DNA of 63,152 nt, filler included, from Pseudovirgaria hyperparasitica (Eukaryota), in assembly GCA_010093815.1 (NCBI GenBank). It is 4 parts of 4 records of this genome, joined end to end, with 100 filler letters (N's around TTAATTAATTAA, not from the genome) between each part and the next. Parts side by side here need not be neighbours in the genome. Positions count along the whole stretch, not along the records: positions 27,794 to 54,248 come from ML996611.1; 3 more parts are not named here. One strand, given 5' to 3'. Positions 12,254 through 57,085 of this stretch are shown piece by piece (position 1 is the stretch's first letter; every line of letters starts with the position of its first letter). The position numbers were made by a program, and so were the translations under genes. The notes beneath the pieces were generated by a model, which had not been told where the DNA came from, did no database searches, and saw nothing but the letters and a program-made list of their open reading frames with translations.

Positions 12254-12566
12254 CCGTCGTTTTCCTAGAACCTGAGTCGCTTGGCATTTTTCAATTTCAC
12301 GCGTGTGTTCACACACCCCAATTAGATAGCTATTTTACCTCTCTACCTCTATATAAGGGTCTATATATAATAATATCTATATAGACTTATAGAGTAGAGT
12401 AGGGCGATTAATCCTATATATTTTTTAAGCTCTATACTCTCTAATTCACTCTATAATAAGAGGGTCTAGTTTCTTAGAGAAGAGGAAGAAGGTGGTTTTC
12501 CTAGAACCTGACGCGGTTTTCGCACGGCCCTCTTCTAAGAACTTTTTAAGATCCTTCTCTACATAT

Positions 12567-19783: not shown

Positions 19784-19800
19784 GAATAGACCTCTTACAA

Positions 19801-19920
19801 GAGTATAGTAAATCTTCTCTACGGCCTTAGTAGCTAAAACCTACTCCTTAGAATAAGTAGCCTACATACTAGGAACCTCTTATTACCTAAGAGCTATTAA
19901 TAGCTAATATAAGTAGTTAG
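19801..19920 (+). repeat. AT-rich repeat; unoccupied paralog of the pogo and NLR-cassette target sites
   Basis: Matches 46849-46869 joined to 48687-48784; reads AATCTTCTC-TA-CGGCCTTAG...AAGTAGT-TA-GTACGC without insertions. Confidence 0.9.
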
Positions 19921-24289: not shown

Positions 24290-25836
24290 ATGCCTGAGAG
24301 AATGTTGCTAAATTTACCGTCAGAGCTCATCTTTGACTTGCTAAACCACGTAGGTTCTTTCTAAAGTCGCGGACGTAGTCTAATACTAGTAGCTCACAAT
24401 CAATAACCTCTGCGAAGTAAGACTTGTCTGCAGGAGGATGGACGATGAAGTCAAAAGGATTGTACATTTCCGAGTACAGTTAGACTTGGCCACTCCTCTA
24501 CACGCAATAGAGACTTTGTCACTATCCCGATTCGTTCGTCAAACACTCTGTATTCACCGGGACACAGATCTTATCTCTTGGGACCACGCTACATCTTACG
24601 TACAAAGATGTGTCCCGAACTCGATCGAAGCTGTCTACATTGATTCTTCGATTCCCACAGTCGACGAGGTATTTCTGCGGAATGTACTGAACAACCATCG
24701 GACTATTCAGCACATTGATGTCAGGAGACGACTACGTAGTTCGAGTGCTTGGTTACGAGCTATTTTGCCGCCAAGTGTCTCGCTCTTTTATGGTACTAGG
24801 CAAGACATCGATGCCTTGTTAATCACTGCACATCCTTCAACCATTACAAAACTTGAACTAGGCTATATCGGGAAGATTGGTAATCGCACCGTCTCTCTAA
24901 AAGATTTTGAGACATTGAGAACTCTTCGCCTTATTGGTTTCGACTTACAATGTTTTATTGAGTTGCATAGAGTTGTTAACCAGCTCAAATCCATCCAGAT
25001 CATGCGCTGCACTGGCGTTGCGCGATTCCTGAGCCAGATACCACCTGCTACGCGCATGGACGAGTTCGAATGTTGTTTGCATTACAGTGATACTGCATCA
25101 ACTATAAGTGCTATTGAAGGATTCCTTGAGAGAGTTCGTGGTCTTCATAAACTAGGGCTCAATTATCAGGAGTCTACTAATCGAGTGAGACCGAACTACA
25201 TACGGCAACATTCGAAGAGTCTTAGACACTTCGAACTTACATCTAACCAGCACCTAAATTTTTTATGCTGCGAAGCATGGTCCGTGGTGTACGAGTGTCA
25301 GTCTCTGGAGTATTTAGGTCTGAGTATTGCCAACCTTGGACCGGAGAGCGCGCAGATTGGGATTGAGTGGGTACACTTGCTCTTTTGGGGGCTTGTAAGT
25401 CAAACTATGGTAAACATGTGTTGCAACGAAGTTAAAAATACATCAGTGGCTCCATCTCCTGCGATACCCAAAACACCCTACGCTCCGAAGCTTCCGTCTG
25501 ACTGGCGCATGCGCGTTTTATGGCCACATATCCCACAAGGATATCGAAGAATCACTTGGGAAAGCTCGGCGTTTCTTACAAATGCGGCTTCCATTAAGGA
25601 TGCTATGCATTAATCCAGCATATACAGATGCAGAGATTGAGAAATTGTATGAGTACGGCAGCCCTACACTAGTGCCGCGTGTAGTGTTAGAAGATGGCGA
25701 GGAGCCGGATGGGGAAAGGTACAAGAAGACCCGGAGATCCGTCGTTTTCCTAGAACCTGAGTCACTAGCACACGCGTGTTCTCTCCCCCATCTTTATACC
25801 TACCCGTCCCACGTACTTCGGAGTTGTAACCTCTGA
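24290..25836 (+). CDS. F-box / LRR-like protein, 3 exons; extreme 3' end runs into a pogo insertion
   Basis: MLLNLPSELIFDLLNH|LTINNLCEVRLVCRRM F-box, LxxLxL repeats, intron ~25395-25446, last exon in frame with ORF 25582-25836. Confidence 0.75.
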
Positions 25837-26673
25837 AGTGCTCCCGACTTGAACTGTACATATGCACTTCAACGGTACTATATAGACAATATATTCAGAT
25901 TTAACAACACCCCCATGCCTACAGTCCCTTATGCGTACCAAAATGAGGAGGAGAAGGTCCAATCTGCCATTCGTGACTTTCGGATCGCGAAATTTGGATC
26001 ATTAGCGGCCTCGGCGTGTCATTATCGCGCTATATACCGTCGCGTCTTGTATCGCAATCGCGGTATACCACCAAAAACCGCGCAAACCAAGACTTCTAAT
26101 AGGCTTAATCCACGGCAGGAGCTTACCCTTAAGGAGTATATACACCACTGCGACGAGATTGGTGTATCTGCTTTAATTAGGCAGATTCGGAGTGCTGCAG
26201 AGTATACGTGATGCTGAGCCTGGTTCTGACCATATACCACGGCTAATTGGACGTGACTGGGTTACGCGTTGGCTAGCACGTAATCCCGAGTGTAAAAAGG
26301 TAAAGCAGAAGGCACGAGAGTCTACACGTATTACAGTAGAGGACGTAGTAGAGATGAAGGGCTTCTTTATAAAGTCGCCTTTGGTACTGAAACAAATCGC
26401 GACTATATGACGTCTATTGAATGCATTCTAGTAGATGGCTACGTGCTCCCTCCTTTACTTATTATGAAGGGAGTCATAGTATGAGAGAAATGGATAAGTA
26501 GAGAGATAGGCCTACTAGGTGACTATAAAGTATCCTGCTCGGAATCTAGTTATATAAATGACCAGCTAGCCCTATCGTGGATTCAACACTTCGACAAACA
26601 TACAAAATCTCGTATACTTAGCGCCTATCAACTCATTATATTAGATGGAGTAGTATCCCATTTAACCGTCGAA
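25803..26673 (+). mobile_element. Truncated pogo/Fot1 DNA transposon (left TIR plus 5' part of transposase)
   Basis: TA+CCCGTCCC... TIR as at 46870; HTH_psq/CENP-B-like N-terminus; internal deletions, stops, no right TIR. Confidence 0.9.
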
Positions 26674-27693: not shown

Positions 27694-27793
27694 NNNNNNN
27701 NNNNNNNNNNNNNNNNNNNNNNNNNNNNNNNNNNNNNTTAATTAATTAANNNNNNNNNNNNNNNNNNNNNNNNNNNNNNNNNNNNNNNNNNNN
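27694..27793. other. Artificial assembly spacer
   Basis: Exactly 100 nt: Ns with central TTAATTAATTAA (stops in all frames). Confidence 0.98.
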
Positions 27794-28183
27794 TGGAGCT
27801 GCACTGTTATCAGTTCCATAGCGTTCTTCACAATCTTTAGCTTACCATGTCTGTCACCTCTGATGCTGGCAGCATGGTTTGTAGAGCTACTGGTAGACAG
27901 TCCCGCCTAGATAAGTCTAGATATTAGAAAGAGCTTGGTATCGTGATTCTCATCATGTGTTCTTTGTGCTTCATTTATATACGTCCTCGACTCATCCGCC
28001 TCTTCCAGCGGTTCTATCGTCTGACTCTACGTCGCAGTGTGCCAGGTAATCGTACTCACCTCCTCCTTGCTTGAAAAGTCTACAGGATTATGCGTGGTGC
28101 CAAAAATCATTTTTGCATAAACTCCCTGCGCCCTCCTAAGGGCGTTGACTTTCAGCTAGTCTCCGACAATCCAATACTAGCTA

Positions 28184-28720
28184 ACGTCCCTCCCTACGTC
28201 GCGAGAAACCCTGTGGGCCGAGATGCCTTCAATACTTTCAATCATAACAAATTGTCCTGTGGTATGGGACCTTGCAAGCTCTCGGGATAGAGGCTTCACA
28301 CCCTATACTACATTTCTACTTAATCTTGAGCGTTGTGATTATCTACGTGGCTTGATATCTAAAAATACAGCAAACCGCTTGATTAAAGTCTTGCACCCGT
28401 CGACCGATTTATCATGCTTCAAGCTTTGCACTTCGTTGGAAAATCTACCATGTCGTAGCCAAATAGATAAAGGCCATATCCCGAGCTTTTTAAGCAGACA
28501 ACAGCGTCTTGTGTCGTGATACAGCAGCTTTTAGACTTAGCATCGAGCAGCGCCAAGAAATCGTCAGCACTGGTCATGTACTAAAAGCCGAAAGAGTGCT
28601 AGATGTGGCTGAAGTCTTGCTTGCCCAAAACGTCTGTACCTTCAGTAGCCCGTAAAACCCGAGCGCCTGATGAGGCCTGACTTTACTCTAGCGAGCCCTG
28701 CCCCATAAATTTGCACCGTC
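28184..28720 (+). repeat. Left long TIR of NLR cassette
   Basis: Colinear and essentially gap-free for ~440 bp with the reverse complement of 32419-32960; roughly four-fifths identical by eye. Confidence 0.9.
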
Positions 28721-29060
28721 CTTCCTTGTCTACTAGCTTGGCTAAAGGGTGACTCGCTTGCGACACCTCGAAGGCCCGCATAGCCCTGTCATCTAGGCCA
28801 ATGGGCTACGCTGTCCCTGCGCGTCGACAAACGACAGCAAAGCCGTCATGTAAATCCACGTGATCGACGCAACTGCAGCCTTGTGCACTTGATGCAGCGG
28901 ACGCTACTTCATCGAAACATAATCCCAGCATTCGTTTCACTCTGCTTGTAATACACGATGGTTACATCCATGCAAGAACACTAATTTACCCCGAGACTAC
29001 AAGACCCAGCGAACGTGCGCCTAGTCCAACGAACCCGCCGAACTTAGTGTGCCCCTTACA

Positions 29061-32029
29061 ATGCACCTGCTAACGCACAATCCACACGGCAACCTCATCG
29101 TCCAGACCTTTACGAACGAACCCTTGCCTCCATACGCGATACTTTCACATACATGGCATGAAGATAATAGTCAAGAGGTCAGCTTTGACGATCTACAGAC
29201 GGGCCGGGTGCAGCAAAAGCATGGCTATGGCAAGATACGATTTTGCGAGCGGCAGGCTGTTGCGGATGGATTGCGGCACTTCTGGATCGACACCTGCTGC
29301 ATCAACAAGTCGGACAAAGCGGAAGAGTCTCAGGCCATCCAGTCTATGTTCCGCTGGTATCGCAATGCAGCTCGATGCTACGTCCACTTGTCAGACGTAT
29401 CGGTGAAGCCAAAGAGAGATCAAGATGTGATCTCATGGGAGACAGCCTTCCGTAAAAGCCGGTGGTTCACCCGTGGCTGGACACTGCAAGAACTTCTTGC
29501 GCCCAGCAAAGTAGAGTTCTTCTCAGAAGAAGAACACAAGCTAGGCGACAAGGAGACGCTCAAGGAACAGATTCGCAGAGCTACAGGCATCCCAAGTGCG
29601 GCGCTCGAAGGTGTTCCTCTTTCTGAGTTTACCGTCGAGGATCGGTTCCGCTGGAAAGGAGATCGCGAGACGACACGAGAAGAAGACGGGGCATACTCGC
29701 TGCAAGGAATTTTTGATGTTAACCTAGCGCCTCTTTACGGCGAAGGCGCTGTGGGAGCATTTGAGCGTCTCAAGCGTGCAATCAGTCAGCTAGCACAGTG
29801 TATTTCAGACCTCCGTGGCACGAATCCGCGCGACGACAAGAAACGCATTCAGGATACAAAGGGCGGACTACTCGAAGATGCTTATCGCTGGATCCTCTCC
29901 AACGAGACTTTCCGGCGCTGGCATAGCGATCTGCAGAGTCCACTACTATGGATAAAGGGTGACCCTGGCAAGGGAAAGACAATGCTACTATGTGGCATTA
30001 TCAACGAGCTTGAAAAACCCGCAGCTTACACCGTCAACATAAGCTACTTCTTCTTCCAAGCAACCGACTCGCGCATCAACAACGCCGTAGCCGCACTCCG
30101 AGGGCTTCTATACTTACTTGTGATACAGCAGCCGTCGCTTATCTCTCACGTACGCAAGCATCATGATCAAGGTGGAAAGACCGTGTTCGAGGATGCAAAT
30201 GCTTGGATTGCCCTGACAGAGATCTTCACAGACATCCTACAGAGTCCCGATCTGGAGCCGACATTTCTAGTTGTTGATGCACTGGATGAGTGCGCGACCA
30301 ATCTCCCAAAACTCTTGGATTTTCTTGTGAAAAGTTCATCTGCGCATTCCAAAGCCAAGTGGATTATATCTAGCCGCAACCGGTTTCTTATAGAGGAGCG
30401 ACTGGAGCAGGCAGGGCGTAAAGCTCGGCTTAGTCTTGAGCTCAACGCTGATTCAGTGTCAACGGCCGTGCGGGCGTTCATTGGGTACAAAGTAGATCAG
30501 CTCACCGGGCAGAAACGATATGACGATCGAACTCGGCAGGCTGTGCTAGCACACCTGGAGTTAAATGCAAACGACACCTTCCTCTGGGTAGCGCTAGTGT
30601 GCCTAGACCTCGCAGGAACATCGAAACGACATGTGCGGAGGAAGCTTGAATCTATTCCGGCCGGACTTGATTCTCTATACGAGCGAATGATGCGGCAGGT
30701 CAGTGAATCCGACGACGCTGAAGTTTGCAAGCAGATTCTAGGAGTGTCTTCACTGGCGTATCGTCCGCTTAAACTAGCCGAGCTCGGGGCTCTTAGGGAG
30801 CCGCTGGATGGCCTCGTCGAAGATGCAGAGTCGTTAAGCGAGCTTGTCAGCCTCTGTGGCTCGTTTCTCACGCTACGAGACCGTACCATCTACTTTGTGC
30901 ATCAGTCCGCCAAGGATTTTCTCCTCGCCAAGGCCGCTAATAAGGTATTCCCTTCTGGCACAGGAGTCGCTCACCACGGCGTCTTTACAAGGTCACTTGA
31001 GATCCTGTCTAGGACTCTTCGTCGCGATATATATAAACTGAAAGCGTTCGGGTGTCTAGTTGGGGAGGCTCAACAACCAGATCCTGATCCACTAGCAGCT
31101 GCACGCTACTCCTGCGTTTACTGGATTGACCATCTGCGTGACTCGAACCTGCTTTCTTCTATGAGTCATGAGGCTCTTCAACATGGTGGCATTGTTGATA
31201 TCTTCTTCCGAAGCAAGTTCTTATACTGGCTGGAGGCTCTGAGCTTGTGTGCAAGCATACCAAAAGGTGTGGTCTCGATGACTAATTTGCATCTTCTAAT
31301 ACAGGTACCGAATTTGGAAACAATCATTAAGACATATCACGCTAACAGAACCAGAACAAGCATGAGCCAACATCATTTACCGAGTTCCTATATGATGCAC
31401 ACCGATTCTTTCTGTATCACAAAAGTGCAATTGAAACCAGCCCACTCCAGGCTTATGTTTCTGCATTACTGTTCAGTCCATTAAATAGCAAAGTCCGGAG
31501 GCAGTTCCAGCATGAAGAGCCCGACTGGATCACCGTTAAGCCAGTAATAAGCAGTAGCTGGAGCGCGTGTATGCAGACGCTCGAGGGCCATAGCGGTTAT
31601 GTCAAGTCCGTGGTGTTCTCGCACGACTCGACGCGGCTGGCATCAGCGTCATTCGACAACACGGTCAAGATCTGGGATGCGAGCAGCGGAGCGTGTGTGC
31701 AGACGCTCACCGTCGGAACATGCATTCAGAACCTCTCATTCGACTCTACCGGCTCGCATCTGTATACTGATATTGGCAAGATTGCTATCATCTCTCCACC
31801 AAATTCCCAACCAATTACTATTACAGATCCCCAACACCCTGATTTCTGCGATATAGGTGTTGAACCAGGAGGAATATGGATCACTTGCAGTGGGAAAAAT
31901 GTTCTTTGGGTCCCATCAGAGTATCGAAGATGGTGTTCATTAGTGCATGGAAACAGGGTTGGCATTGGTACTGGATCCGGAAAGGTGTGGTTCTGCAATC
32001 TGACCGCTAAGGCTGACAAGTCCATATAG
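29061..32029 (+). CDS. HET-NACHT-WD40 (HNWD, het-e/het-d-like) NLR, ~972 aa, 2 exons
   Basis: HET motifs YAILSHTW, WIDTCCINK, WFTRGWTLQELLAP; Walker A GDPGKGKT, Walker B VVDALDEC; intron 31305-31354 joins in frame to an exon with one full WD40 unit (LEGHSGYVKSVVFSHDSTRLASASFDNTVKIWD). Confidence 0.95.
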
Positions 32030-32418
32030 AAACTAAAATCAAGTCACATGGAATTAAATAGACATAAAATTAATCATAAGGAATATTCATTCGATTCTAA
32101 GAATTAAGCTTCGCTCGAGCTTTACTGTGGATCAATTTGGTTATGTGTAAACACGTCAAGGGCTTCTTGCCACATTGGGTTTCTCGCCACGCAGGGAAGG
32201 ACTCCTGGCAGACAGGCGATGGGCTAAGGCCATAGATTGCGAGCTGTGTATCGCATAAAGCTGCAAATATCCCCTCACGTGCAAATAGCACATGGTGGTG
32301 TGTACTGTGGACCACTGACTTCGAGTGTCCCTAGACAGGTTAAGCTTGTACGGGGTCGATATGGCCGCTTTCTTGTGTTCCCTAGATAAGGACAAGCGAC
32401 CGCTGGTGCTCCGTAGTG

Positions 32419-32960
32419 GGGCGGTACAGATCTTTGGGGTAGGGGCCGCTAGGGTCAAGTCAGGCCTTGTGAGGCGCTCGGGTTTTAAAAGATGCTTAAG
32501 CTATAGCTAGCACGTCTTGGTCAACCAGACTTCAGCCACATCTAGCACTCTTCTGGCTTTTGATACATGGCCATTGTCGACGAGTTCTTGGCGCTGCTGG
32601 ACACTGAGTCCAAAAGCTGCTGTATCTCGACACAAGACGCTATTGTCTGCTTAAAAACCTCGGGATACGGCCTCCATCTATTCAGCTACGACATGGTATA
32701 TTTTTAAACGGAGTGCAGAGCTTAAAGCGTGATAAATCGATCGAATGGTGCAGCACTTGAATCAAGCGGTTTATTGTATTTTTATATATCAAGCCACACA
32801 GACAATCGGAACGCTCAAGATTGAGTGGAAGTGCAGTACAAGATATGGAGTCCATATCCCGAGAGATTGAAAGTTCTCAGACCCCAGAACAATTTGTTGT
32901 GATTGAAAGTGTTGAAGGCATCTCGGCACGCAGGGTTTCTCGCGACATAGGGAGGGACGT
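32419..32960 (-). repeat. Right long TIR of NLR cassette
   Basis: Inverse of 28184-28720. Confidence 0.9.
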
Positions 32961-33101
32961 TAGTGCCCCAGAGATGGCCGTTGTGCATCAATGATACTAG
33001 TGTACTGCCGGTGAGTCTTTCAGTCACTTTTCTGCCTCGAGTGAAGCGTAGCATATTCTACATTACGAAAAATTCAGATCAGATATGTCCGTTTGATATA
33101 G

Positions 33102-35459
33102 CTAGCGCTTCAGTCCACCCATAGCTTTTCTGAACGTTTCTAGGCCTTTCTCCAACATATTTTTCCTAGACTCCAGACGAAGGCGCTGTTGCATGATCTC
33201 AGGAGGCTCAGCAGCGACGAACTCGATTTCTTTCTCCGTCATTTGTGTCACTACTAGAGGCGAAAGAATGTTTTCAGGGAGGGGTTCGACCAAGTGGCGC
33301 TCAATGACAGCCTTAGTGACGGCGTTGACGAAGTACTTCATCTCATCTTTGTAGAACGCACGCTCAATATCAAGAGCTTCCTGGCTTGAGAAGACGTCCA
33401 TATCCAGCTCGATCGCTTTATTCATGGCCTCTGAGAGCTTTCCAGGGTCAATATGCGTACTTATGTCGTTGTAGCGATCATACGTGCTGACTTGTGAGGC
33501 TTCTGAGGCTTTCTTCGTGATTTTCTCGTGTTTGCGTTGACGCATCTTCTGTACCGTGGTAGTGAAGTAGTGGTTATAAGTAGTTGGATGGCGAGTTTTG
33601 TCCTTTAGGACCTTGTGCAGTTCTTCTTCCGCGCCGGTAAGAGCTTTGCTTAATGCACCATCCACATACAGAGTTGTAAGCCGGCCCTTGAACTCAGATG
33701 GAGCGGCATCCCGGAGAACCACATCGATGAACTCCTTACAAGCAGTCGCAACCGTGTTAATATGCTGAGAAGCAATCTGCTCCCATGGCTGGGACTGCTC
33801 CCAGAAAAGCTGTGATATCAGCATTGGCTGGAATGTGCCAGGAAGCTCGTAGCCACGGGAGCGCTCCAAAGTCTTCTTGACCCAGTCGATGGCTTCTTGA
33901 CGTGTAAGCTTCGTGGGCTTGGGAAGAGACATGAGCTCCCGGTGTTCATCGAGATTACCAAGCTCTTCCTGCGCTTTTATATCCTCTTTGATTTCTCCCT
34001 CTCCGTCACCAGGTCCGGCTCCGAATGCGTATTTATGACCCCTCAAGCGCATATCGTTGGCGAAGGTGATGTTGAGGTGTTGGATCACAGCTCGAAAGCG
34101 GCGGATATTCTCGGATGCATCAACAGCAGCGTCCTTGTTGATTGGTCCGAAAAACGACGACTCGTAATAGCCCTTGGTAGCAGAATTCAAGATGTCGCTG
34201 ATGCGCATGCTGATCTTCATCAGAACCATGCGCTGCTCATGAGTGGTGTTGCGCTTGTCGCCTAGCTTCACAAGCTCTGCAATTGTACCCTGAAGCTTGT
34301 GAACTATTTCGTCCTTCAAAGAAGGAAGCTCCTTGATCAAATGATTGAGTAGCACTTTACTGAGACGCTCGCGCAAGGAGTTAATGCCAACGCACTCACG
34401 GGGTAGGTCCGCGTAGCGGCCCTTGTTAAAGAACATGTCCTCGTCTGCGTTGCGTTGCTCAAAGGAGAACTTCATCTGATTATCACCACGATTCTTAAGC
34501 ATGTGCCAACCGCGCTCCAAGTAAATATCCTTGTTCTGGACCAACTCGATCCAGGTCAGTTCATTATCAGTGCCTTCACGGAGGAAGTCAGGCTTGGTGA
34601 CGATGCCAAGGGTACGACGACCCTGGTCGTCGATCTTGCGGCAATGGTCCAGAATAATTTGATTAGCGTAATCGTTCTTTGCGCTCACCACTGCCAAAAT
34701 GATGGTACGCGGGTTTTTCATGTACTCCTTAACCAGGTTCAGGATCAGCTCTTTATCGATCTCTGTCTGTGCTTTGTTGGTTGCATGGATGAGACCCGGA
34801 AGGTCCACGAGAGTACTAGCCATTCATTAGTACGCCTTTAGCATATCGGATGAATGACATACAGTTGAGGCCTGGCTGGACCAGTGATCTCGACCGACAG
34901 CACATCACGAGAGAATGCCCTTGAATTGATCCCACCTACAACCCCTAGGCCCATCGCTAGTGTCGCCTCTTCGATCACATCTGGAAGCTGACTGAAGTCG
35001 TTCATGGACTTGCTGAACGATTTGAGCTTGGCTTGCTCCGACTTTGGGCGAAGCTTGTCTGGAGTGATCGTGATTGTGCTGGTGGACGATGCAGAACGAC
35101 GGAGGATGATCTAGAAGTCGTTAGCATAATACCTGGGGCATTTGAGATTTACTCACTTCAGTCGCAAATCTCGTACACAGGTTTTCCTTACGAGGAAACG
35201 GAATCTCGGTGATAGCCTCAAGTACAGAGCTTTTACCGGATGACTGGTCACCGCAGACTACAAGCTGGGGTAGTTCCACAATACCACTGAGACCTGTACG
35301 TCGCAGCTTGTCTACGATATCCATAACTTTCCGCTGATCTGCAGACTGTAAAGCGTGCAGTGAGCTTGTAGTGACAGAGTCCGGGTCGATAGGCACTGTC
35401 GATGTGGTTGACATCTCGACGCCTTCAAAATCGGAGTCGCTAGACGTGCCACTTGCCAT
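33102..35459 (-). CDS. Dynamin-family (Mx-like) GTPase, ~755 aa, 3 exons
   Basis: G1 GDQSSGKS, G2 CTRFATE, G3 DLPG, G4 TKPD, RGYELPG middle domain, GED-like end; introns 35156-35111 and 34862-34816 keep the frame. Confidence 0.95.
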
Positions 35460-38400
35460 ATTTGTGAACAAACTCTTTTTGTAGGCGAAGCAGATAACAC
35501 TGTCGAGTTGAAGTGGTACGGAAGAGATAGTTGGACGAGCAACAGAGTGACTTAGAGATGGATCCAAAGAGGCTGCCGCAGTGAGTGCGAGGGAAATAGA
35601 CAGCAAGGCGATTGCTGCGGAATTACATCTTCGCTTTTTGCGATGTACCAAGGATCTATTGACATCTTGCGTTACACTGCTTATCCCACGAGTTGTCTTA
35701 AAAAAACAAAGGAAAACAGTCAGCAGCCCTGTCCCAACAACTGAGTAGAACTTTTTGAAAACGTGGCCATTTTAGTGGACACATCCCCCCTTCTTCCCCC
35801 TATACCTGCTTTGCAGTTCTCGCATTTCTCTGGATCTACGTATCTGCTGGCTTGCATAACATGCATGACCACAGTTCAGCGCCTCAAACGCTTTACATCC
35901 CTGTAGCGGACTGGATCATGCATTGCGGGATGAAAAAGCTGCTTTCTATCTGCGAGCGAGACCAAGCCAGCCATCGGGATAAGACAGTCATCGGTGATCT
36001 GGGCTTGGTTCTCCACATGTTGGCACACCGTAGTAGACTTTCTCGCTTCTGGTGCTTCCGTGGCTGCTAGATACTACTGCTAGAAATCGCAACGCGGTTC
36101 TGATTGGCAATGGCACAAAACAAACGGGGCCTCTAGACCTCCAGGAATCATCTTCGCAACGGTCTCTGAGCCTGCATGTAAAGCGCGGCGTCCAGCCTCT
36201 AGATCATACTTCGATTCGTTTAGCGATGTTATCTTTCCTGATCTAGGAAGACCACTGAGTCCGGTTACTTCGACTGCGTTCTTGTTGCCAGACACTAGTT
36301 CCCGGCATATAGTATCTTCTGCAGCACCGACTGTTATTGTCGCTCGTGTAGGTTGGGACATTATGTCTAAAGGCATTTCAACAGGAAGGGGGGCGAAAAC
36401 GCAAAAACAAACTTTTGTGAGAAGTTCATGCATTCAGTATCATTAGCCCATAGGTTTGGCTTACACGCCACTCCGACAGTTGTTCACCGGAATCGAGGAA
36501 TTCAAACACCTGTATATGCGCGGAATGCGAAGAGAAGCACTGCACTGCAAATCATGCTGCAGCTCCCTCTGTTCCTTTCTACAGAAGAAGTGGCTAGACG
36601 CTTCGTTACTTGCGACAGTTTCTCTCGACTGCCGCTGAGGTTGGAATGGTGCCGCATAGCAGCGTTCTCGACGCTCCTCCGGATGCTGATCACGATACCA
36701 AGATGGAGGTGATTGTCTAGGAAGACCCGACATCTTATACCATTAACGCAGAAGCATGGTGGTGGCATGCCAACAGGAAGAGACGTGGAACGTTCACTTG
36801 GTCTAGACCGTTGCAATCGGAAAGTGCGACCACTGGCTCCCTCACGACGTTCTGCAAGACTTTGCCATGATATACGCAGCTTTGACGCTAGTCTACTCCA
36901 GCGGACTTACAACTTTCAGAGTCTGCAAGTCTCCGCGTTAGGTTGCCGAGACTCACCGCCTACCGTGTTGTAAAACTACACACACACAGGTACCGATCAC
37001 AGAGCAATTTAGTAGAGTACCCTAAAGACCCATGCGACAGAGCCTCTCACTAATGCTCTCTTGATCGGAGGATTATCCGGCTGTGAGTGTTGATTTGGCG
37101 TGGCGGTGTTGGGGTACGCTTCATGCGCGACGCACTACCCGTATCTCTCGTACTACGTTTCTGCTTCTTCCTTGGTACTGCTTTTTGTAAAGCCTCACGC
37201 TTGCCTGTAGAGGACTTTTGTATAGCTGTCTCATGATCGCGAGTTTGCCTTTGGCCCTCTCCCTCAGTCATGTAGCGGCGAAACAGGGATGATTCATGCC
37301 ATGCTGCCATCTCGGTTGGTATTCTCCAAAGCGATCTGAGTGGGATCAGTTGTAAACGCCGTTTATACGTCTGCCTTGAGCACAATGGTTACAACATACA
37401 CAATACAGCCACTGATAGGCTTCCTGGCCAGCCCATCGTACTCGGAGAAAGTCTGCAACCTCATGTATCAGCGTGACAAGGGCTGCACAAAGGGATTGGT
37501 GGATTCGAGGAGTCTGGTAGTCAACACTGATGCAAAGGAGAAGATGAATCCATGTCACGGCTTGCAGCTGGGCGGATACACCAGCCAATGCGTTGCGAGG
37601 CGAGCGGCTGTACTGTACCACCATCGCCATCCGCTGTGATGCGCGGTAAGACCCTGGGCCAGCTCCACCGTCCTCTCTGATCGAGCACTGCCGCACTATG
37701 CCGCACTAAGGGCGCTGTTGCTTCGATACGCAGTCTGCACGGTCCAGTGCCTATCAATTGTCGCCATCGCCGCAGAAAAGTCCTAACAGCCACGCGGAGG
37801 TTGGACTAAGCCTGTTGGTAGGTAAGCGGTTTTTGGCGAAAGACTCGTATGACTCTTGAGGCTGCAGCAATGATCGGTGAGAGAAGCCTAGGCGGTCTCC
37901 ACTTCAATCAGGAGACCAGTCGGTGCACCATTATTGCAGACATGTGGCTGATTATCGGTGTACAAGAAGGGACCGTCTGCTGATACAGCATGGGCAACAA
38001 CAGTTTGGAGATCATTAGAGCTTGTTGAAGCAAACTAACCGTAGTCAATTGCCTAGTTGACAGTGGTCCCTCGCTCATACAAATGCAAATGCATACGGTC
38101 ATTTTTTTGTCTACTAGTGGTAAGGCTGAGGCCCTGTTAAAAGCTCTGTTCATTCTGGTGGAGGCTTGCATTCCAGTTACTATTGCAATTTCTGATCGGG
38201 TTGTAATTGTGCCGGTATTTTCGCATGAAAATCTGCATGATGAAATCAAATTGACCATCCACTTTCTTCATGGCAGCTTCCGCATCTGCAACGGCGGCTT
38301 CGTGTATTACATCTCCTAAAGCACATGTCCTTTCCATAATGCGCTCGAGGAAGTCGCCGCAGTCAACAAAGTCCGGGTCGCGCGAGAAAGGGACTGTGGA

Positions 38401-38565
38401 GAAGGGCGCGGGGCGGGTCGGACGCTTTCGTATCTAGTCGCGGGTGCGAGTCGGGTCTAGCGTACGTGGGGCAGGGTAATGATAGACATCGTGCTACTTC
38501 TGCCTCAGACCGCAGTCCCCACCCACCTGTCGTCTTACAGAAGGCCACAGCCAGACGAGGCTGAG

Positions 38566-38586
38566 CAGCAGCAGCAGCAGCAGCAG
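38566..38586 (+). repeat. (CAG)7 microsatellite
   Basis: Directly visible. Confidence 0.9.
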
Positions 38587-38821
38587 TCCACCACCAATGT
38601 TGCGCAGACTACCTCAGCGGCACTGCTTTACTTCCATCTCTTGACATCAATACTCACCACCTCAATATGCGAAAGTTTGGTAGCGTGTTTCGCCCAAAGA
38701 AGACTGCGACGGTCCTGCCCACGCCAGATCCATCAGACCCACCCTTGCCAGATGGCGAAGCGGGAGCACAACCCTTCGGACTGCGCCGACACGCCGACCC
38801 CCTTTTTATTAGTCAAGGGCA

Positions 38822-41160
38822 GCCCTTGACTAATAACGGCGCAGTTGTGAAGCAGTTCTTCAACGATCGGAACGCATCTCGCGCTTCCGGCGTCAACCGT
38901 ATCTCGACCGACTCAGCTTTGCGCTGCGCTCGCCCACCTATGGGGATATTACCGCCATTTTCAGTGAGTTTGTTGAGCGGCGCCGCAATGCGTGAGAAAC
39001 CTGCAATGAATTTGCGGTAATAGTTCACGAAACGTATGAACGTCCTGATTTGAGGTACAGTAGTAGGCTCTGGCCATTCCATGATGGTCTTTACGCGCTC
39101 TGGCTCCATTTTTAGGCCGCCATGAGTCACAATGAAGCCGAGAAACCCAACTTCTTGTTGGTGAAACTCGTATTTGGACAACTTTGCGTAGAGCTTATGC
39201 TGCCTTAAGCGATTCAGCACCGATTTGACGTGTTCTTCGTGCTCCTCCAGGCTATCGGAGTAAATCAGTATATCATCGAGATAAACTACACAGATCACGT
39301 CCAGTAATCCTGCAAGTGCAGTATTGATGTAGCCCTGAAACGCTCCTGGTCCATTTGTTAGCCCAAACGGCACAACAGTGTACTCGAAATGACCATATCT
39401 GGTCCGAAATGCGGTTTTCTACTCATCTCCGCGACGAATTCGAAGCCGATGATAAGCATCTCGCAAATCAAGCTTAGTAAAGTACTTCGCCTTCGTTAAT
39501 TGGTCCAAAGATTCACCAACTAGCGGTAATGGGTGCCGATTCTTCTTGGTCACCGCATTTAATGCCTGATAGTCGACGCAAAGGCGTAGGCTGCCGTCCT
39601 TCTTCTTTATGAAAAGAATAGGTGCGCCGGCTGATGACGTACTACGACGTATCCAGCCCCTTCCGAGGAACTCTTCGATGTATTTACGAAGAACTTCGAG
39701 TTCTAACCTCGAAAGTGGGTAAAGTGGACTTTAAGGGACGTCTGCTCCCTCTTCGAACTCGATCTTTAGCTCGCGCGGTCCATGATCGGGGAGAAGTGAC
39801 GCATCTCCTGCCGAAAATACATCCGCATACTGCGAATACGTGTCGGGCAGTGTATCTTTGCTCCGATTAGGGTCACCGTCGTCGTCTTCGTCGACGATCG
39901 ATAGCGATGCAAGGTAGATTGGCGACGATCGAGTCCGTACAGCGAGGTTCCATGCCTCTTTGCTGATATTTGCGATCTGCTGGTATAATTTACCGCGATG
40001 TCGACGGAACGTCAATGTCTCCTTCCAAAAATCGAGGATTGGATTTAGGCGTTTGAGCCAAGGCATTCCTAGAATCATATTCCATTGCCCAATATTAGCG
40101 AAGATGAACTGATCATTCATCTGCTGCTTTGTTGTCTTTGAGTCATGAACTTCGCAATTCGTCGTAGTTTGACCCAAAGTTCTGACTTCATGACCATCAA
40201 CTGCGATGGTTCGGCCAAGTTTGCCGAGGTCATACGCTAATCTGCACTCTTTTGCAAGGATCGACGAAATATAGTTGTCTTCTGTGCCCGTATCCACGAG
40301 GGCCTGTACAGTTTTGGTGCCTTTTGCTGTGGGTAACGATACTTTCAGCAGAATGAGGTGTTTACTCGCAGGAAGCCGTTGAGGCTCCTCCTGAGTGTAT
40401 GTAATCTGGCCAATAACGCGGTCAGGTCTCGCGAAATGGCCTATGCGCTGTGGTCCTGCTGTTTTGCGACAGGCGTGGCATTTGAGCCTGTGCCCTGTCC
40501 TTTTCCGCGTTGAGAGTTACCGCCCCGACTGGATCGGTATCCTCTTGACGCATTTTTGCCCCGATTTGCGCTCTTCTGGCGCTGATCGTTGTGAGGTTGC
40601 TCATGATCGAACGTATTCGATCGACCTCGCTTCTGACCGGTTTGGGGTTCGTCGACCTTGCCTAAGGATCCGCGTTCCCCGAGGATGCGGTAATGTTCTT
40701 TATCTTTCTCCTCTAATTCGTGTAGATGGTTGAAACTTGACAATGCTATTCCCAGTCTTTCTCTGATCGACGGGAGTAGTGCTTCGCGATACTGAAATAT
40801 GCGTATATTCTCCTGTAACATTGGGATGTTATCCCAGAGGTTCTGTAAGTATTGTAGGAGTTGAGTGGGCGTCTGATTTGGTCGTTGTCCGACGCTTTTC
40901 AACTCGGATAAGGCCTTCCTTTCGCGTTCTCCTGTGGTGCCGAGTGTATTCAGCATGAATTTGGCTAGATCGTCCCAGGTTGTCGCAAATAGTGGCTTAA
41001 CTTCCTTCTGTCTGTCCCATTGATCGCGGGATTGTGAACCTAAGTAGCGTTCTCCGAATGAAATGCGTTGTCCTTCGGTAGAAAAGAGCGTAGGGTTGTC
41101 AAGGAAGTACTTTTCGCAGTCTCTCTTCCAATCTTTCCACTCCTTTTGGTTCTTTCTAGC
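38822..41160 (-). mobile_element. Ty3/Gypsy retrotransposon internal fragment (gag, protease, RT), no LTRs, no RNase H or integrase
   Basis: Gag-like ORF; protease [55 protein letters not shown]; in-frame stops at 39731 and ~39420; ends at TTAPLL. Confidence 0.95.
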
Positions 41161-41223
41161 AACATCTAGTAAGTGGTGTTCATACAGATGGATCTTAGCT
41201 AATGCATTGAATATTATCAAGAG

Positions 41224-42486
41224 ATGTCTCTTCCGAATCTCCCTCATGAATTACTTCTTTCGATAAGCGATATGCTACATCGGCTTTGTTATATAAATAC
41301 TTTAGCTCGAACGAACCGACGACTATATTGGCAACTCAACAGCTATCTATACTCCCTCGATGTTAATGAAACTGGAGGGTCGGCATTAGTCTGGGCCGCA
41401 GAATCTGGATTAAGGAAAACTGCTTGGCTATCGCTCGCTGAAGGCGCGAATGCAGAAGCAGTCAACAAGATAACAATACCAAGTTTGCTGGAATGCCTAG
41501 GTTTCAGGTATACATCGATTTACCTGACACCACTTCAGATTGCTCTGTCCTATGGGTCTGATTCTGTTGCAAGGCTCTTGATTAATCATGGCGCCCTGTC
41601 TTCGGCAATTTTTCCCCCTGAAATGTGTAGTTGCACAAACATTCATATGGCGGCTGCTATGGGGCTCACATCCACTTTGAAAACTTTGATTAAGCAAGGT
41701 GCAGATGTTGGAGCTCGCGATCGGTGTCTTCGAACACCATTACACTACGTTGCCGCAATACAAAGCCGGAAATTGCTAGAACAAGCATGGGTGGTTATGC
41801 TGCTTTTGTCAAACAATGCAGACCCCAAAACGGAAGATGCTCAAGGGAGGAGTCCGATATCCATGGGGAAAAAACGATTCAATCCCGTCGCCAAAATGGT
41901 ATCAGAGAAAGGCGCTACAATTGAAGCGTACGAGATATCGTTGCGAGATCGAGAGACCTTCGAGGCGTGGCGCATATTGAAGGAAAACCGTGAAGAGACG
42001 ACGTGGTCCGCAGAGACGAAAGCAAGCCAACCGCTTATACAATACGGGAAAGAGCGAAAGTCTAAGAACAGAAAGAAGAGAATTGCAGCCACAGGGAACC
42101 ATACAATGCGAGATGAAATAGTGAAAGGAGAATTCCAGAAAGTCACTCAGATACCTGATAAGAACGCAGCTAAACAATTCGAATCTACCACGGTAAAAGC
42201 CAAGCAAGATTTGATAGAGGAGAAGGAGCGCTTGGGGAAGCATAGCATTTTAAGAGAGGCTTGGTCTACGATGAGGAGAGAGGCTGATCAGAAGAATCGT
42301 GCGGCCCATCAACTCAGTTCGTTGCCAAAGGCAGAATGCGATCATGTGCTGGGCCTATGGAAGTGTTGTGTGCGAAAGTCCTGTCAATTTTGTGGGGTTT
42401 CTGCAAAGAGGCTGTCTCTTTGTCCGGATTGTGGATTCGTGGCATGTGTGCGATGTAAATCATCAGAGATGCAGATGTATATGTAG
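41224..42486 (+). CDS. F-box-like + ankyrin-repeat protein with C-terminal Cys-rich (Zn-finger-like) domain
   Basis: LPNLPHELLLSI...LARTNRRLY; ANK units ALVWAAESG, TPLQIALSYG, TPLHYVA; C-terminal CxH..C..CQFC..CPDC..CVRC. Confidence 0.85.
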   Translation: MSLPNLPHELLLSISDMLHRLCYINTLARTNRRLYWQLNSYLYSLDVNETGGSALVWAAESGLRKTAWLSLAEGANAEAVNKITIPSLLECLGFRYTSIYLTPLQIALSYGSDSVARLLINHGALSSAIFPPEMCSCTNIHMAAAMGLTSTLKTLIKQGADVGARDRCLRTPLHYVAAIQSRKLLEQAWVVMLLLSNNADPKTEDAQGRSPISMGKKRFNPVAKMVSEKGATIEAYEISLRDRETFEAWRILKENREETTWSAETKASQPLIQYGKERKSKNRKKRIAATGNHTMRDEIVKGEFQKVTQIPDKNAAKQFESTTVKAKQDLIEEKERLGKHSILREAWSTMRREADQKNRAAHQLSSLPKAECDHVLGLWKCCVRKSCQFCGVSAKRLSLCPDCGFVACVRCKSSEMQMYM

Positions 42487-42857
42487 AGCAAAGTTAACGC
42501 GAGAGTTTTGGAGTAGCTACACCTGGGTGATTGAAAAAGCGAGTCCTCTAAGGATTTTTAGCCAACTTAGTTAGTACTGAAGCTCCGGTCGTAGTGTTGT
42601 ATCATATGCTCCATGTCCTATGATTGATAATGATAGGCTGCCGAGCTGGCATCGTAAGTATGTTTGATTCACACTGTAAAGGATCCAGAGAGCTTAAGAT
42701 ATTGCAAAATCTCCTCTACCTATTCCTCAGCACCTTTCAGATCATCATCGACCGACGAAAAGACAGAGAACGGATGTCGATGAGGGTGAGCCCACAGCCG
42801 TTCCGATCTACGCACGACCTGCACAAAGCCATGTTCGGCCTCCAAAGGCTGGAGGGA

Positions 42858-44551
42858 CCATAACAGATGCAATCATCCTGCTTGTCCTTGCATTGGGCGC
42901 AGTTCTGCAGGAAGATAGACTGATCAGGGGTTCTCTCAACCCTCGCAATAAAATTGCCGAGTCAATCCACTCTCCTTCGACACGAATGCGATATTCACCT
43001 GTAACCTCAATAGGTCTTCGGTCGCCTGTCGAAGACAAGGATCCAGGCAGCCCAGCACGTTTAAACAAGGAACTCATGAATCTGGACGTTATTCCTGGTC
43101 TACACTACTATGCGTATGCGTCTAATATCCTTGGGAATCTGTACGGTGGTAACGAAGTTTACCATGCCCAGGCGTTTCTACTAGCGAGCCTCTACATGAA
43201 CCAACTTGGTCGTGGCTTAGAGAGCTATAGCTGGATTAATGCTGCAGCCCGGGTTATTAGGTTCAACCTTAGAATGTATCTTACTTCCTAGCTATATGAA
43301 TCATGCAGAACGCTGACTCGCTGTAGAAATCACGTATATGTGAAGCCTGACCCTACGGACCCTTCTAAATATAATCGCCAGCAGCATCCCGATAATCTAC
43401 CTCCTGGTGAGGTAGCCAAGTTTAAAATCAAGATGAATCTCCTCAAGTTCGTATATTGGTCAGCAGTACAGCTTGAAAGGTTAGTCTAAAACGATGAGGC
43501 ACCATTAAATAGTAAAACTGAACTATAGCAGTGATATCCTTGCATATTTGCCACTACCAACAAGTCATATAACACTTTGGGAAGATCGAGTTGCCTATCC
43601 GAAAGATCAACCAGTGTCTGGCGAAACGGGACAAGTCGATAACCAGCGTGACATTATCATAGTGTTGTTTTTGGCACAGATACAGTTCCGTAAGATACTC
43701 AACCAGGTCCCTATGCATCTATCCACCTTATGGGACCATCCACCAGACAGCTTCCCAGCTGGCGTCTACGAGCCTCCATTCGGTAGAGAGGCGTCAACAG
43801 GCATACCTTCGTTTCTCAATTGGCTATATAACTGGCGAAACGTGAGTAAAGCGATGGGCGTGGATTGGGATGATTATGACGATCCTTCCCCCGATCCGAA
43901 TATTGCTAGGCTACGAGCGAAATACTATGGAGCAGAAACAATCATTACTCGACCATACCTACACTACGTATACCATTGCCCAGAAGCCGACCGAGATGTA
44001 CTTAAACGAGCATGGACTTACATCAGATCTCGAAAGGAGAGCTGGACGGCTTCAAAGCTCCGGGAAGCGGAATGGGGAAACTCACTTGAAGATCTTCTTG
44101 AGAGTGATCCAACTCAGTCTCGGGATGGCATTAGTACCAAAGCCATCAGGAGCATGCTGCTTAGTCATGCTTGTATGTGGTCCTCGATCCGGAGTACGAA
44201 AGCTTTCGACGGTATTCGAACACGTCTAAAGGTAACGAATATTTTTGGCACAATCCATGCGTGAGTATCCTTCATTATTACATAAGATATCAAACACACG
44301 ATATGAAACACCTAACATGAGACGACAGTCAATTCGGAAATTGCTTGGTTCTTGCACAGTGCTGCGAGTCTGTATGGTTTAAAGACCTTGAAGGGTTTGC
44401 CCCGATCCATGAAGTCCCCGAACTCCTTGAAGAAACAATGCACAAATGCAAAACATACTCAAACCTCGCACCAGCTCTTGTCAAAGATTATCAGATTTTA
44501 CGCCAAGCTTCAGATAGCATCAGAGGATTGAGAGCATCCAGCACGTATTAG
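42858..44551 (+). pseudogene. FTF1/FTF2-family fungal transcription factor, 5'-truncated (no Zn2Cys6 domain)
   Basis: AIILLVLALG, NLDVIPGLHYYAYA, YWSAVQLE|SDILA, ARLRAKYYGA..ITRP, VTNIFGT.HA|QFGN; three canonical introns; no upstream start exon. Confidence 0.8.
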
Positions 44552-45636
44552 ATGTACCCTCCAGAAGAGCACACCTGATCATCATAGCTAGTACATTGTT
44601 TAAGACTCATATCATGTGGCGTGAAATAGCATCAAAATGGCAGTTTTAAATCTTGTCACTCTCACCGACACGCCTGGAAGTCCGTGACCCGGTGTGGTAC
44701 CATGATGATCCCATGATCCGCTATGTTTTGCAAGGATATGTAAGCAAGTACCAGGATACTACAACTTAACCACTTTCCGTTAATCCAAGCGTGTTTGTAG
44801 CCTCATTTGGCTGAACATTGTGGATGTTGAGGTGCTGTGAGTGCTTGAGCTTTTCAGGCTCTATCATATGTTAGGCTTCTAATCCGCCTTATAGATCTTC
44901 AGGCGGGGCGGTGGTGCATAAGTTTCAGGGTTGCTGCACCTTCTGTTAGGTGAACTCGACGCCCTGTCTTGACAATTTTATGTTTTGAGATCGGGATGCA
45001 GAGACCATCTGCGGTGTAGAACCTCGCTGTAGTGTGCAACGCTAGACTAGGCGGAATGTACAAGGGTGTCATCTTTTGCGATTGTGCGGTGGGCGAAAAG
45101 AGCGTAGGGGAGAAAGAGTTACCGCGAGTATCAGCAATAGAGTATTCATCCCAGTACAAAATATATAGTATTATCACTGGAAGTTTATGGTTCGGCGATA
45201 TGCTCCAACAGGATATTGAAGCTGAGCAAAAGTGCCCACCTCGCGAGCTCGAAGTCTTGCAGGGATACATCAAATCCAGAAATCTCCGTAGAAATGCTCG
45301 AACTGCGATCCTTTGTCTCGACATATATCTGATCAGGAGCGCTTCCATAACGTAAAATCCATCTTGCTGGAAAAGCCCCGGTTGTGGGAAAATCACTACA
45401 AGCATTCATCGTATCTGTCTCCTCAGCCAGACCATTGAGCACTTTGTTTGAGCGCGTGAAGGCACGGATTCGAGGGCATCCTGGTAAAGCGTTTCGATGG
45501 ACTTCAAGAAGGACTTCGGATCCAAGCTCTCCCGCTACGCCGCACACAGACGACGCTTGGATGATAGGCCTCCATGCCTTTCCAGATTACCGGTATACGT
45601 TCTCAGTCACTTCTTTACGTCAGTGTTTCAACTGTT

Positions 45637-46209
45637 GAGGCATCAAGCTGCAGTCTTGTTTTAACAAGCCAGATTGGATTTGTAGCAGTCGCTGTTGCTA
45701 TCCCAGCGGCAACGGCAGCGTAGGCGTGAACTATGGCCGCGTCTTCTCCGCACCCTAGCATCTGCGCTCTAAGATATTTACAGTTGCCGTATACGTAGAA
45801 TTTAATTGCAGTTGCAGGGACTACGCCTGCAAGGCTTGGCCCGAGACCTCGATAGAAGCCGCGCCAGCCTTCGGTATGGGAGATGGAGCCAATGATCTGG
45901 AAGGTGCCGCGAATGTGGTCCTTCGATGGACCAAGAAAAGTAAGCCTGGACTGGACGGGAGACGCAGGAACGAGAGAAGGGCGGTGGTAATCTGATTGGA
46001 GTCGAGTTCGCAGACCATCAAGCGGGGATGTAACAAGCGCTGTGGCTAATCCTCCATTGCTTTAAGCAATCAAGGCTGTTCGTGACTTACGCGCCAGCAA
46101 GCAGATGTACCCAAGATCGTACCGGTCTCTGCTCTATCGAGCTACTATTTTTTGTCTTTGGAAGTATTGCTGAAGACTGAGAGCTGTGACGCATCGATTC
46201 CTGTGCCAT
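45637..46209 (-). pseudogene. Mitochondrial carrier (RIM2-like) 5' fragment, absent from the ORF track
   Basis: SWVHLLAGA|NGGLATALVTSPLDGLRTRLQSD...EGWRGFYRGLGPSLAGVVPATAIKFYVYGN...ATNPIWLVKTRLQLD, then truncated; intron only 31 nt. Confidence 0.85.
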
Positions 46210-46591
46210 TCTCGTGGTTCATCGACGGCTATGTGCGTGCAATGGAGTGCGAGCTACGACGAAACAAGTCGCGTTGAAACGGATGTACACGCATGCGACA
46301 AAGAAGAATGCATTGGAAGACCAATCAAACGAGCAGTGAGAGAAAAATTGAGAGCGTGTTGATGAATATGGAGCTTCTGTAATATCGCAGTGAAAATCTC
46401 GAGGAAACACGAATCTAAGCTGCGAGAAAGTCTTGGAGTTTCGGCAGAGCCGAGGAGTCCCCGGGGGCTGAGTCAAACAACCCGAGTCTTGCAACGTCTC
46501 CAAAGACTTTCAATTCGGACTGAGTGTAGTCTACAACAAGATAGTTCTTCCACTTCGAAATCAATTCGCGAAATCTGTAGGTTTTGGTCCT

Positions 46592-46681
46592 TTGGACATC
46601 TATGCTTGGACATCTAATGCTTGGACATCTAATGCTTGGACATCTAATGCTTGGACATCTAATGCTTGGACATCTAATGCT
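46592..46681 (+). repeat. Minisatellite (TTGGACATCTAATGC) x6
   Basis: One 14-bp unit plus five identical 15-bp units. Confidence 0.95.
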
Positions 46682-46869
46682 CGGCAGTATCTCGACGAAA
46701 CGGTTCCCTGTCGCGTTGCGGAATTATGCGTCACTTCAGCCAGTGACTTCGGTCGAACTTGCTCGTGAACGCGTTGCTCAGTATTGAGGACAGCCGTTAG
46801 CCACACAGTGCGCGACATGCTTGAACATTTCAAGTAATAGATAGTAGAGAGTATAGAAAATCTTCTCTA

Positions 46870-48684: not shown

Positions 48685-48784
48685 TACGGCCTTAGTAGCT
48701 AGAACCTACTTCTTAGAATAGGTAGCCTAGATACTAGGAGCCTCTTATTACCTAAGAACTATTAGTAGCTAACATAAGTAGTTA

Positions 48785-56988: not shown

Positions 56989-57085
56989 TGCCCGATACGA
57001 TGGCCACACATCGCGTTTCGAGAACGAGTCGAGATTAAGAGATCAGAATGCGGCCATCCAGTTGTGAGTTGTCAAAACGGACTGA

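Follow-up and report, generated by a model that had tools for sequence, protein, structure and literature searches.

A Complete HET-Domain NLR Gene in a Probable Non-autonomous pogo/Fot1-like Element of the Mycoparasite Pseudovirgaria hyperparasitica

Structure of the NLR Element

Between two long terminal inverted repeats (TIRs) at positions 28184-32960 of a stretch of DNA from Pseudovirgaria hyperparasitica, a mycoparasitic dothideomycete, lies a single gene for a NOD-like receptor (NLR), and the whole unit of 4,777 bp, referred to here as the NLR element, is the subject of this study. The stretch as analyzed (the window, 63,152 nucleotides, assembly GCA_010093815.1) is composed of four contigs (1-27693, 27794-54248, 54349-59725, and 59826-63152), the second of which (26,455 bp) carries the NLR element. 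These are joined by linkers at 27694-27793, 54249-54348, and 59726-59825, each consisting of 44 N, TTAATTAATTAA, and a further 44 N; since the window is thus four contigs placed end to end, features spanning the linkers have no real linkage. Contigs of four public sequencing runs were compared with positions 34249-54248. The runs X1 and X2 are DNA from a single sample which may be the source of the assembly and they are therefore not independent of it, and X3, whose library kind is not recorded, was taken as RNA from the GT..AG joints in its contigs.

The ends of the element read TA/ACGT...ACGT/TA (28182-28187 and 32957-32962, the slash marking the element boundary), as the initial annotation had claimed for them. 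The left (outer) TA occupies 28182-28183 and the right (inner) TA 32961-32962, the latter being followed by unique DNA across a junction that is bridged by a read contig (X2 record 9). The left arm extends over 28184-28721 on the plus strand and the right arm over 32419-32960 on the minus strand; the outermost ~45 nt of each constitute the conserved terminus of the family (28184-28228, starting with ACGTCC, and 32916-32960). Aligned to each other (28181-28721 against 32963-32419) the arms showed 82.4% identity over 546 nt, and a realignment (~545 nt, 83%) contained 446 matches, 62 transitions, 30 transversions, and 7 gap columns, with one mismatch in the first 30 nt. Their homology fades at ~545 nt and neither arm has an inner end of its own. 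With transitions and transversions at 62:30 and 20 of the 62 transitions in CpA/TpG context, repeat-induced point mutation (RIP) between the arms was not clear. The arms were also considered as coding DNA, which was ruled out because the three codon positions had similar numbers of substitutions (15/18/20) and stop codons occur in the right arm.

The NLR gene follows an upstream region (28722-29060, plus strand) in which an RNA contig (X3 record 21, mapped from the second copy of the element described below) starts at or upstream of 28966. Exon 1 (29061-31304, plus strand) encodes residues 1-748 with the HET and NACHT/NPHP3_N domains, and exon 2 (31355-32029, plus strand) encodes a linker, one WD40 repeat by Pfam, and the C-terminal tail before the stop codon; between them lies a 50-nt GT..AG intron (31305-31354, plus strand) that is absent from the RNA contig (joint from 50390 to 50441 in the second copy). 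The encoded protein of 972 aa is 100% identical to P0001, named 'HET-domain-containing protein [Pseudovirgaria hyperparasitica]' at NCBI, and the closest protein outside P. hyperparasitica is 65% identical. Pfam recovered HET (E 1.4e-12), NACHT (E 6.3e-14), and NPHP3_N (E 5.5e-35), and for WD40 a single stretch passed (E 2.3e-12), located in the ~140-aa tail. An X3 contig of 2,908 nt equals 49822-50390 joined to 50441-52779, that is, the NLR transcript with the 50-nt intron removed, beginning at least 95 nt upstream of the ATG; because this contig is its transcript without the intron, the NLR gene is regarded as intact, spliced, and transcribed. The claim of one intact HET-NACHT-WD40 gene between inverted arms of ~540 bp is thereby upheld by the match to P0001, the Pfam domains, and the spliced RNA contig.

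No transposase or transposase remnant was found inside the element, either in its open reading frame (ORF) and gene content or by tblastn with the transposase of a related locus (L010, described below), whose matches in the window were confined to separate pogo copies (47031-48122 and 26383-26673).

A further match to the terminus profile (see below) is located inside the element at 32163-32204 on the minus strand, 135 nt beyond the stop codon and 756 nt short of the right end. An alignment of ~75 nt from this position with the left end scores 45 (against a mean of 19.7 and a maximum of 28 for shuffled sequences); its tip carries mutations and lacks a following TA. We read it as a relic of an older right terminus, and given such a decayed terminus inside the element the present right arm would be a later addition, perhaps from a second inverted copy. 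The NLR gene was already within a terminus-bounded unit before the right arm was added. Elsewhere in the window, another copy of the family has left an isolated relic of 98 nt on the minus strand (1945-2041), which matches arm positions 125-222 at 86%.

Copies and Flanks of the Element

The second copy of the element is inverted (48785-53561, minus strand) and has TA at 48783-48784 and 53562-53563, and TA thus stands outside both tips in both window copies. The copies differ at one base, 48790 (equivalent to 32955), located 6 nt from the inner tip, and the other 4,776 positions are identical. The unit had been said to exist twice at exactly 4,777 bp. The second copy stands, but the identical block is larger than the unit: as an inverted repeat it measures at least 5,169 bp (27794-32962 against 53951-48783, four differences), includes 390 bp of the outer flank (flank A), and stops at 27794, the first base of the contig. 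Homology ends at the element terminus on the inner side only (32962/48783). There the inner ends of both copies join different DNA exactly at the terminus and TA, and judged from these breakpoints the inner junctions look transposase-made.

Word depth in unique DNA was 316.5 (X1) and 297.3 (X2), and in the element interior 623.4 and 533.8, and the resulting ratios of 1.97 and 1.80 indicate about two copies of the element in the genome. One X2 contig of 6,381 nt, bearing the variant of copy 1, runs from the unique gene region over 32960/32961 into 508 nt of the element, and another, at 2x depth (X2 record 15), stops 27 nt past the element end.

Flank A (27794-28181, equal to 53564-53951 inverted with three differences at 27865, 28002, and 28045) belongs to a high-copy repeat, its bin reaching 49x (X1) and 19x (X2) the unique depth. 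The contig ends in repeat A on both sides, and no further copy of flank A was found in the window. Three differences in 390 nt of flank A stand against one in the other 4,779 nt of the block (Fisher p 0.0016), a clustering that is unlikely under joint copying of flank A and the element and that agrees with an origin of the flanks from two distinct members of repeat A, or with noise in the consensus close to the contig end. The corresponding flank of copy 2 (53562-54248) is represented by RNA contigs, including variants with deletions of 55 nt and 64 nt, and contains an open frame of 87 aa, truncated where the contig ends, for which there was no homologue (0 of 201 candidates, longer proteins searched) and no Pfam match at E <= 1.

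Differences between repeat copies in the genome were mostly of two kinds, C>T at 137 and G>A at 132 places in X1 (10-74 for each of the other ten kinds), which is a RIP-like pattern. The duplication of the element must then be very recent, as its two 4.8-kb copies escaped RIP-like change.

The inner end of copy 2 abuts a multicopy repeat (repeat R, 48685-48782, with a paralogue at 19822-19919). This repeat is ~120 bp long, and 19800-19919 matches 46848-46868 plus 48685-48784, the second copy being interrupted at a TA by a 1.8-kb pogo element (46869-48684) with ~82-nt TIRs, TA flanks, and HTH_Tnp_Tc5 and DDE_1 ORFs split by an in-frame stop. A partial second pogo copy is present at 25800-26673, and the window pogo copies differ chiefly by C>T and G>A. 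Repeat R reached ~10-18x in the reads, with pogo-free contigs at ~10x (joint from 46867 to 48685), and no homology with the 19800-19919 region resumes past the far end of copy 2. Since the match is one-sided and the pogo-free form is bridged, 19800-19919 is an empty site for the pogo and not for the NLR element, contrary to the initial annotation, which had taken it as an empty paralogous site of the latter.

Three origins of copy 2 were considered. It is quite possible, at somewhat below even chances, that a larger unit was copied, either in a macro-transposition that used a left end farther out or in an inverted segmental duplication. Two separate insertions, each next to a different member of repeat A, a route that would agree with the surplus of differences in flank A, and an assembly mis-join within repeat A are each rather unlikely when taken singly. 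Sister-chromatid (hybrid-end) transposition and replicative inversion were dismissed by reasoning rather than computation, as neither yields an arrangement A-E-U-E'-A' with like outer flanks.

Related Termini and Elements in Metagenome Loci

Twenty-three NLR homologues were aligned, and 80 metagenome loci with relatives of the NLR were taken with up to 6 kb on each side. A terminus profile built from ten tips (46 columns) was searched over the 80 loci and the window at E <= 0.05. It gave 15 matches in 13 of the 80 loci and none on five shuffles of the same DNA. Upstream termini, on the plus strand before the HET gene, were present in 11 of the 44 loci having at least 1,300 nt upstream (the profile itself had been built with 6 of these 11), at 476-1,249 nt before the HET-gene match in ten of them and at 3,245 nt in the locus L076, and four matches were on the minus strand, downstream of the NLR gene. 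All 15 termini pointed toward the NLR gene, and so did 7 of 7 when the profile's own rows were set aside (sign test 0.008). Nearly all tips are preceded by TA, and beyond the tips the loci are no longer homologous to one another; judged by eye, the tips consist of ACGTCC and then two direct repeats of ~16 nt. With a model made from the two ends of the window element only, L072, L076 (both ends), L058, and L038 were retrieved at E <= 0.05 and L010 was not listed; the tip profile, which was built with L010 among its tips, matched L010 with E 5e-9 at both ends and the window ends with E 2e-10 to 6e-9.

Long inverted repeats around the NLR gene were detected by self-comparison in 2 of the 80 loci, L010 (arms at 126-646 and 7058-7574, ~520 nt, 73%) and L030 (arms at 4745-5247 and 9322-9825, ~505 nt, 87%), whose tips, TA/ACGTCC... 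and TA/AGGTGC...TCCCT..., have motifs in common with the window tip. The motif scan added L076, with TIRs of ~50 nt and TA/ACGTCC at 635 and 8592. Pairs of TIRs around cargo with TA flanks, for which the initial annotation had proposed a search, are thus found in L010, L030, and L076 with NLR cargo; these three, out of 39 loci that extend 500 nt or more to either side of the NLR match, are complete TA-flanked elements with family repeats on their flanks. TIRs of hundreds of bp occur in three of the four complete elements. A flanking inverted repeat of 31 nt in L011 is unrelated and was left out of the counts.

The L010 element (7,445 bp) combines a HET-NACHT gene having six WD40 repeats with a 583-aa open frame on the opposite strand that reads inward from the other end. 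This frame matches DDE_1 (E 3.9e-33) over 177 of 177 profile positions and is apparently an intact transposase; no nested inverted-repeat pair was found around its gene, and because no second such pair encloses it, the gene is not a nested insertion. Its homologues numbered 1,014 at E <= 1e-20 among 7,999 scored, some with HTH_Tnp_Tc5, and the named ones came from Cladosporium (77% identity), Pyrenophora, Botrytis, and Bipolaris, one being called 'transposase tan1' (64%). On account of these homologues the lineage is assigned to the pogo/Fot1 group, near Tan1. The L030 element (5,077 bp) carries a HET-NACHT-ankyrin gene and the L076 element (7,958 bp) a HET gene and a HET-DUF7779-TPR gene, both without a transposase. 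The two HET genes of L076 lie at 1486-3216 (minus strand) and 3754-7554, the second having an in-frame stop (4753-4755) between HET and TPR. In L001 a DDE_1 fragment (55-411) with 44% identity to the L010 transposase stops a few bases short of the left terminus at 419; here an NLR element is possibly nested in another pogo, and the contig ends before the right end.

The phylogenetic tree was based on the HET domain only (81 rows, 15 of them terminus-bearing; L015 and L022 left out for want of a usable HET match) and was poorly resolved. About a quarter of the sampled loci still have a terminus, and the terminus-bearing rows are scattered over the tree; a grouping of these loci as one clade was rejected, the tree needing 11 changes where shuffling gave 13.0 on average and a number as low in 67 of 500 cases.

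Pieces of the element were also seen in X5, a run labeled as another organism, namely 666 nt with 25 differences, 157 nt with 1, and 144 nt with 9, all within 50037-53010 of copy 2 and at 94-99% identity; the longest of them, which corresponds to 28735-29401 of copy 1, takes in the promoter and the beginning of the HET coding region. The same run contained the pogo at 83% and nothing from the unique region 34249-38250, at low depth (2-5). There is a hint in these data that the element occurs without its present neighbors in the X5 organism.

Interpretation and Alternative Explanations

We consider it probable that the 4,777-bp unit belongs to a pogo/Fot1-like (Tan1-like, DDE_1) lineage and carries a HET-domain NLR inside one terminus. 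Being transposase-free, it can only be a non-autonomous member. The proposal of a non-autonomous TIR element with a complete NLR thus gains from the related termini, the three complete TA-flanked loci, and the L010 transposase, and the part of it that the data do not bear out is movement of the window copy. In the mechanism proposed, an L010-type transposase supplied in trans would bind the element tips, cut at TA/ACGT, and insert the unit at a TA, and the NLR gene would be carried along with its own promoter and expressed wherever the unit lands; the element may derive from a short-TIR or transposase-bearing ancestor. In diverged relatives the NLR is found at one and the same position and in one orientation with respect to the terminus, so that it looks like a passenger carried by the lineage for a long time and not like a one-off capture, and the Pack-like capture initially suggested is probably a wrong description. 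The scattered tree and the fixed position and orientation agree better with an old association in which ends were often lost than with many separate captures. Tentatively, and with more doubt than confidence on our part, the idea can be extended to the whole HET-NLR clade, which would then be, or descend from, cargo of a Tan1-like lineage that swapped sensors (WD40, ankyrin, TPR) and seeded copies whose ends were later lost.

Several observations count against the membership and cargo role proposed for the window element. The receptor may lack a working sensor, as one WD40 repeat only was detected in its sequence. The arms are 17% diverged, which makes the shell old, and depth in the TIR region is only ~2-4x, so the family is not prolific in this genome. 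With the outer flank common to both copies, the assembly does not have the form expected of a clean cut-and-paste event involving only the 4,777-bp unit, and neither an empty site nor an insertion polymorphism for the NLR element was found in the window and the read contigs. The window pogo was tried as the partner of the element and rejected, having a different tip and TIRs, an in-frame stop, and a transposase 30% identical to that of L010, and in L010 itself the HTH_Tnp_Tc5 match (E 0.014) was below the Pfam cut-off. No right end was found in L006 (left terminus, 5.9 kb downstream of the gene) or, with shorter flanks, in L017, L038, and L058. The 80 loci were picked by NLR homology and are therefore silent on how often the lineage lacks an NLR. 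Lastly, a later-added right arm is partly the scenario of independent arms that the initial annotation had held up against its own proposal; the relic terminus concedes that scenario for the right arm, but not for the NLR, which by then was already enclosed.

The most substantial rival concerns copy 2, which need not stem from transposition: it could be an inverted duplication of flank A with the element, or a mis-join in the high-copy repeat, the element being an immobile fossil in this genome. We give this a considerable chance, well short of an even one; it concerns the event in this genome only and is compatible with membership in a transposon family. In its favor, the match between the copies continues for 390 bp beyond the outer tip, as far as the contig begins, both contig ends fall within repeat A with its 49x (X1) and 19x (X2) unique depth, the 2x-depth X2 record 15 ends just past the element, the element has no transposase, and no partner transposase was found in the window. 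However, the inner block boundary falls exactly at the terminus by a TA in both copies and next to two different neighboring sequences, depth supports two real copies, and the concentration of differences in flank A (Fisher p 0.0016) is not what a single co-duplication predicts.

Two other explanations would remove the NLR from the cargo altogether. According to one of them, a resident NLR was bracketed by two independent repeat insertions or fragments in opposite orientation, making a chance composite. Arms that are only 83% alike, the decayed terminus at 32163-32204 with its implication of a right arm added later, and the isolated arm fragment at 1945-2041 would all suit such a history, but the arms have no inner ends of their own, their homology fading at ~545 nt, the layout of terminus, 0.5-1.2 kb, and inward HET gene start recurs in 11 loci of other organisms, and three of the recurring loci are complete TA-flanked elements, one with a transposase, so that we disfavor this explanation as improbable. 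Still more improbable, in our estimation, is that the ~45-nt terminus is a promoter or regulatory module of the NLR clade whose downstream inverted copies are incidental. The distance from terminus to start codon is indeed fairly constant (476-1,249 nt in 10 of 11 loci), and in 8 of the 11 loci where a terminus lies upstream, the DNA examined contains no right end. Yet four elements have the terminus at both ends, inverted and with TA outside each tip, one of them encoding a DDE_1 transposase between its ends; L072 and L077 have an inward-facing terminus downstream of the gene; and homology between loci stops at the tip.

Comparison with Known Mobile Elements and Receptors

The closest known systems are Tan1 and Vader of the pogo/Fot1 group (Tc1/mariner superfamily), with which the window element has TA flanks and terminal inverted repeats in common, and to Tan1 there is the further tie of the DDE_1 transposase in L010 with its tan1-named homologue. 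The ACGT tips presumably resemble those of Tan1, Vader, and Pot2 as well. Unlike Tan1 and Vader, the window element holds a complete 3-kb immune-receptor gene with its own promoter and has TIRs of ~0.5 kb. Tan1 and Vader are described, in the available part of a review, as an autonomous/non-autonomous pair active in Aspergillus niger (PMC13728883). This pairing may serve as the model for the trans-mobilization proposed here.

Pack-MULE and other Pack-type elements of plants are likewise transposase-free TIR shells that hold host-type coding sequence. They contain mostly gene fragments, often chimeric, captured repeatedly from many genes. The window element differs in holding one whole, spliced, expressed gene, of the same family and at a fixed position in 11 loci, and its autonomous-looking relative L010 also carries an NLR.

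Starships measure tens to hundreds of kb and move by a tyrosine recombinase, the 'captain', whose gene lies at one end. The window element, unlike these, is a 4.8-kb, TA-flanked, TIR-bounded unit with a DDE_1 relative and the NLR gene only, and no Starship-type tyrosine recombinase was present among 20 window ORFs scanned. NLR and HET-domain cargo is documented for Starships in the accessible portions of reports on these fungal mobile elements (PMC9156397, PMC13562431, and others). Another functional gene moved by a TIR DNA transposon in fungi is ToxA, which according to the excerpts at hand is located in the 14-kb hAT transposon ToxhAT of Dothideomycetes (PMC6737239, PMC12506042); ToxhAT differs in its superfamily (hAT), in its virulence-effector cargo, and in being a single known element rather than a diversified lineage.

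The domain order HET, NACHT, WD40 of the window gene is that of the HNWD allorecognition NLRs of Podospora (het-e, het-d, het-r), from which the window NLR differs in having only one detected WD40 repeat. Fungal genomes contain dozens to hundreds of NLR genes with fast turnover. The partly available text of a 2026 study on Podospora reports that NLRs are enriched near transposable elements. Within the literature consulted, in part as excerpts, NLR or HET cargo was found only for Starships, with subscription journals and repeat databases (Repbase) outside the search. Only Starships are named as natural cargo carriers in fungi in the available sections of a 2026 review (PMC13728883), and a screen for the co-option of fungal transposable elements makes, in its accessible part, no mention of NACHT or incompatibility genes (PMC10799480).

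A cell-death receptor recurring as the cargo of a cut-and-paste transposon across a lineage would be unexpected, and related shells with NLRs suggest a way for receptors to be copied and moved. The vehicle would be small and concrete, with defined tips of 45 nt, TA as the target, an L010-type enzyme as the candidate transposase, cargoes of 3-6 kb, and three sensor types, and it would be a natural cargo-carrying cut-and-paste vector for filamentous fungi. Were the whole clade transposon cargo, such elements would be a main engine behind growing NLR repertoires and presence/absence variation, and perhaps behind horizontal spread as well; in that case the death-domain receptor might serve the element, for example by favoring its carriers at hyphal fusion.

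Other Features of the Window

Between the two copies of the element lie a dynamin-family gene (33102-35771, minus strand), an ankyrin-repeat ORF (41203-42486), and, in high-copy retroelement-like DNA, a gag-asp protease ORF (39731-40516). High-copy retroelement-like sequence together with a multicopy region occupies 38251-41585 and 42253-44920, and the multicopy region has RNA contigs with GT..AG introns at 43276-43326 and 44261-44328.

The last contig repeats the beginning of the first at 99.6% (1-1056 at 61284-62339 and 1110-1220 at 62337-62447). The first contig also contains an inverted-repeat pair (3245-3921 and 12561-13187, ~680 nt, 87-93% alike) around ~8.6 kb in which the enclosed ORFs have no Pfam matches, and a third, partial copy of this repeat is present in the last contig (60613-60732). 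The tips of the pair are unlike those of the NLR element, and the pair may delimit a second cargo element with long TIRs.

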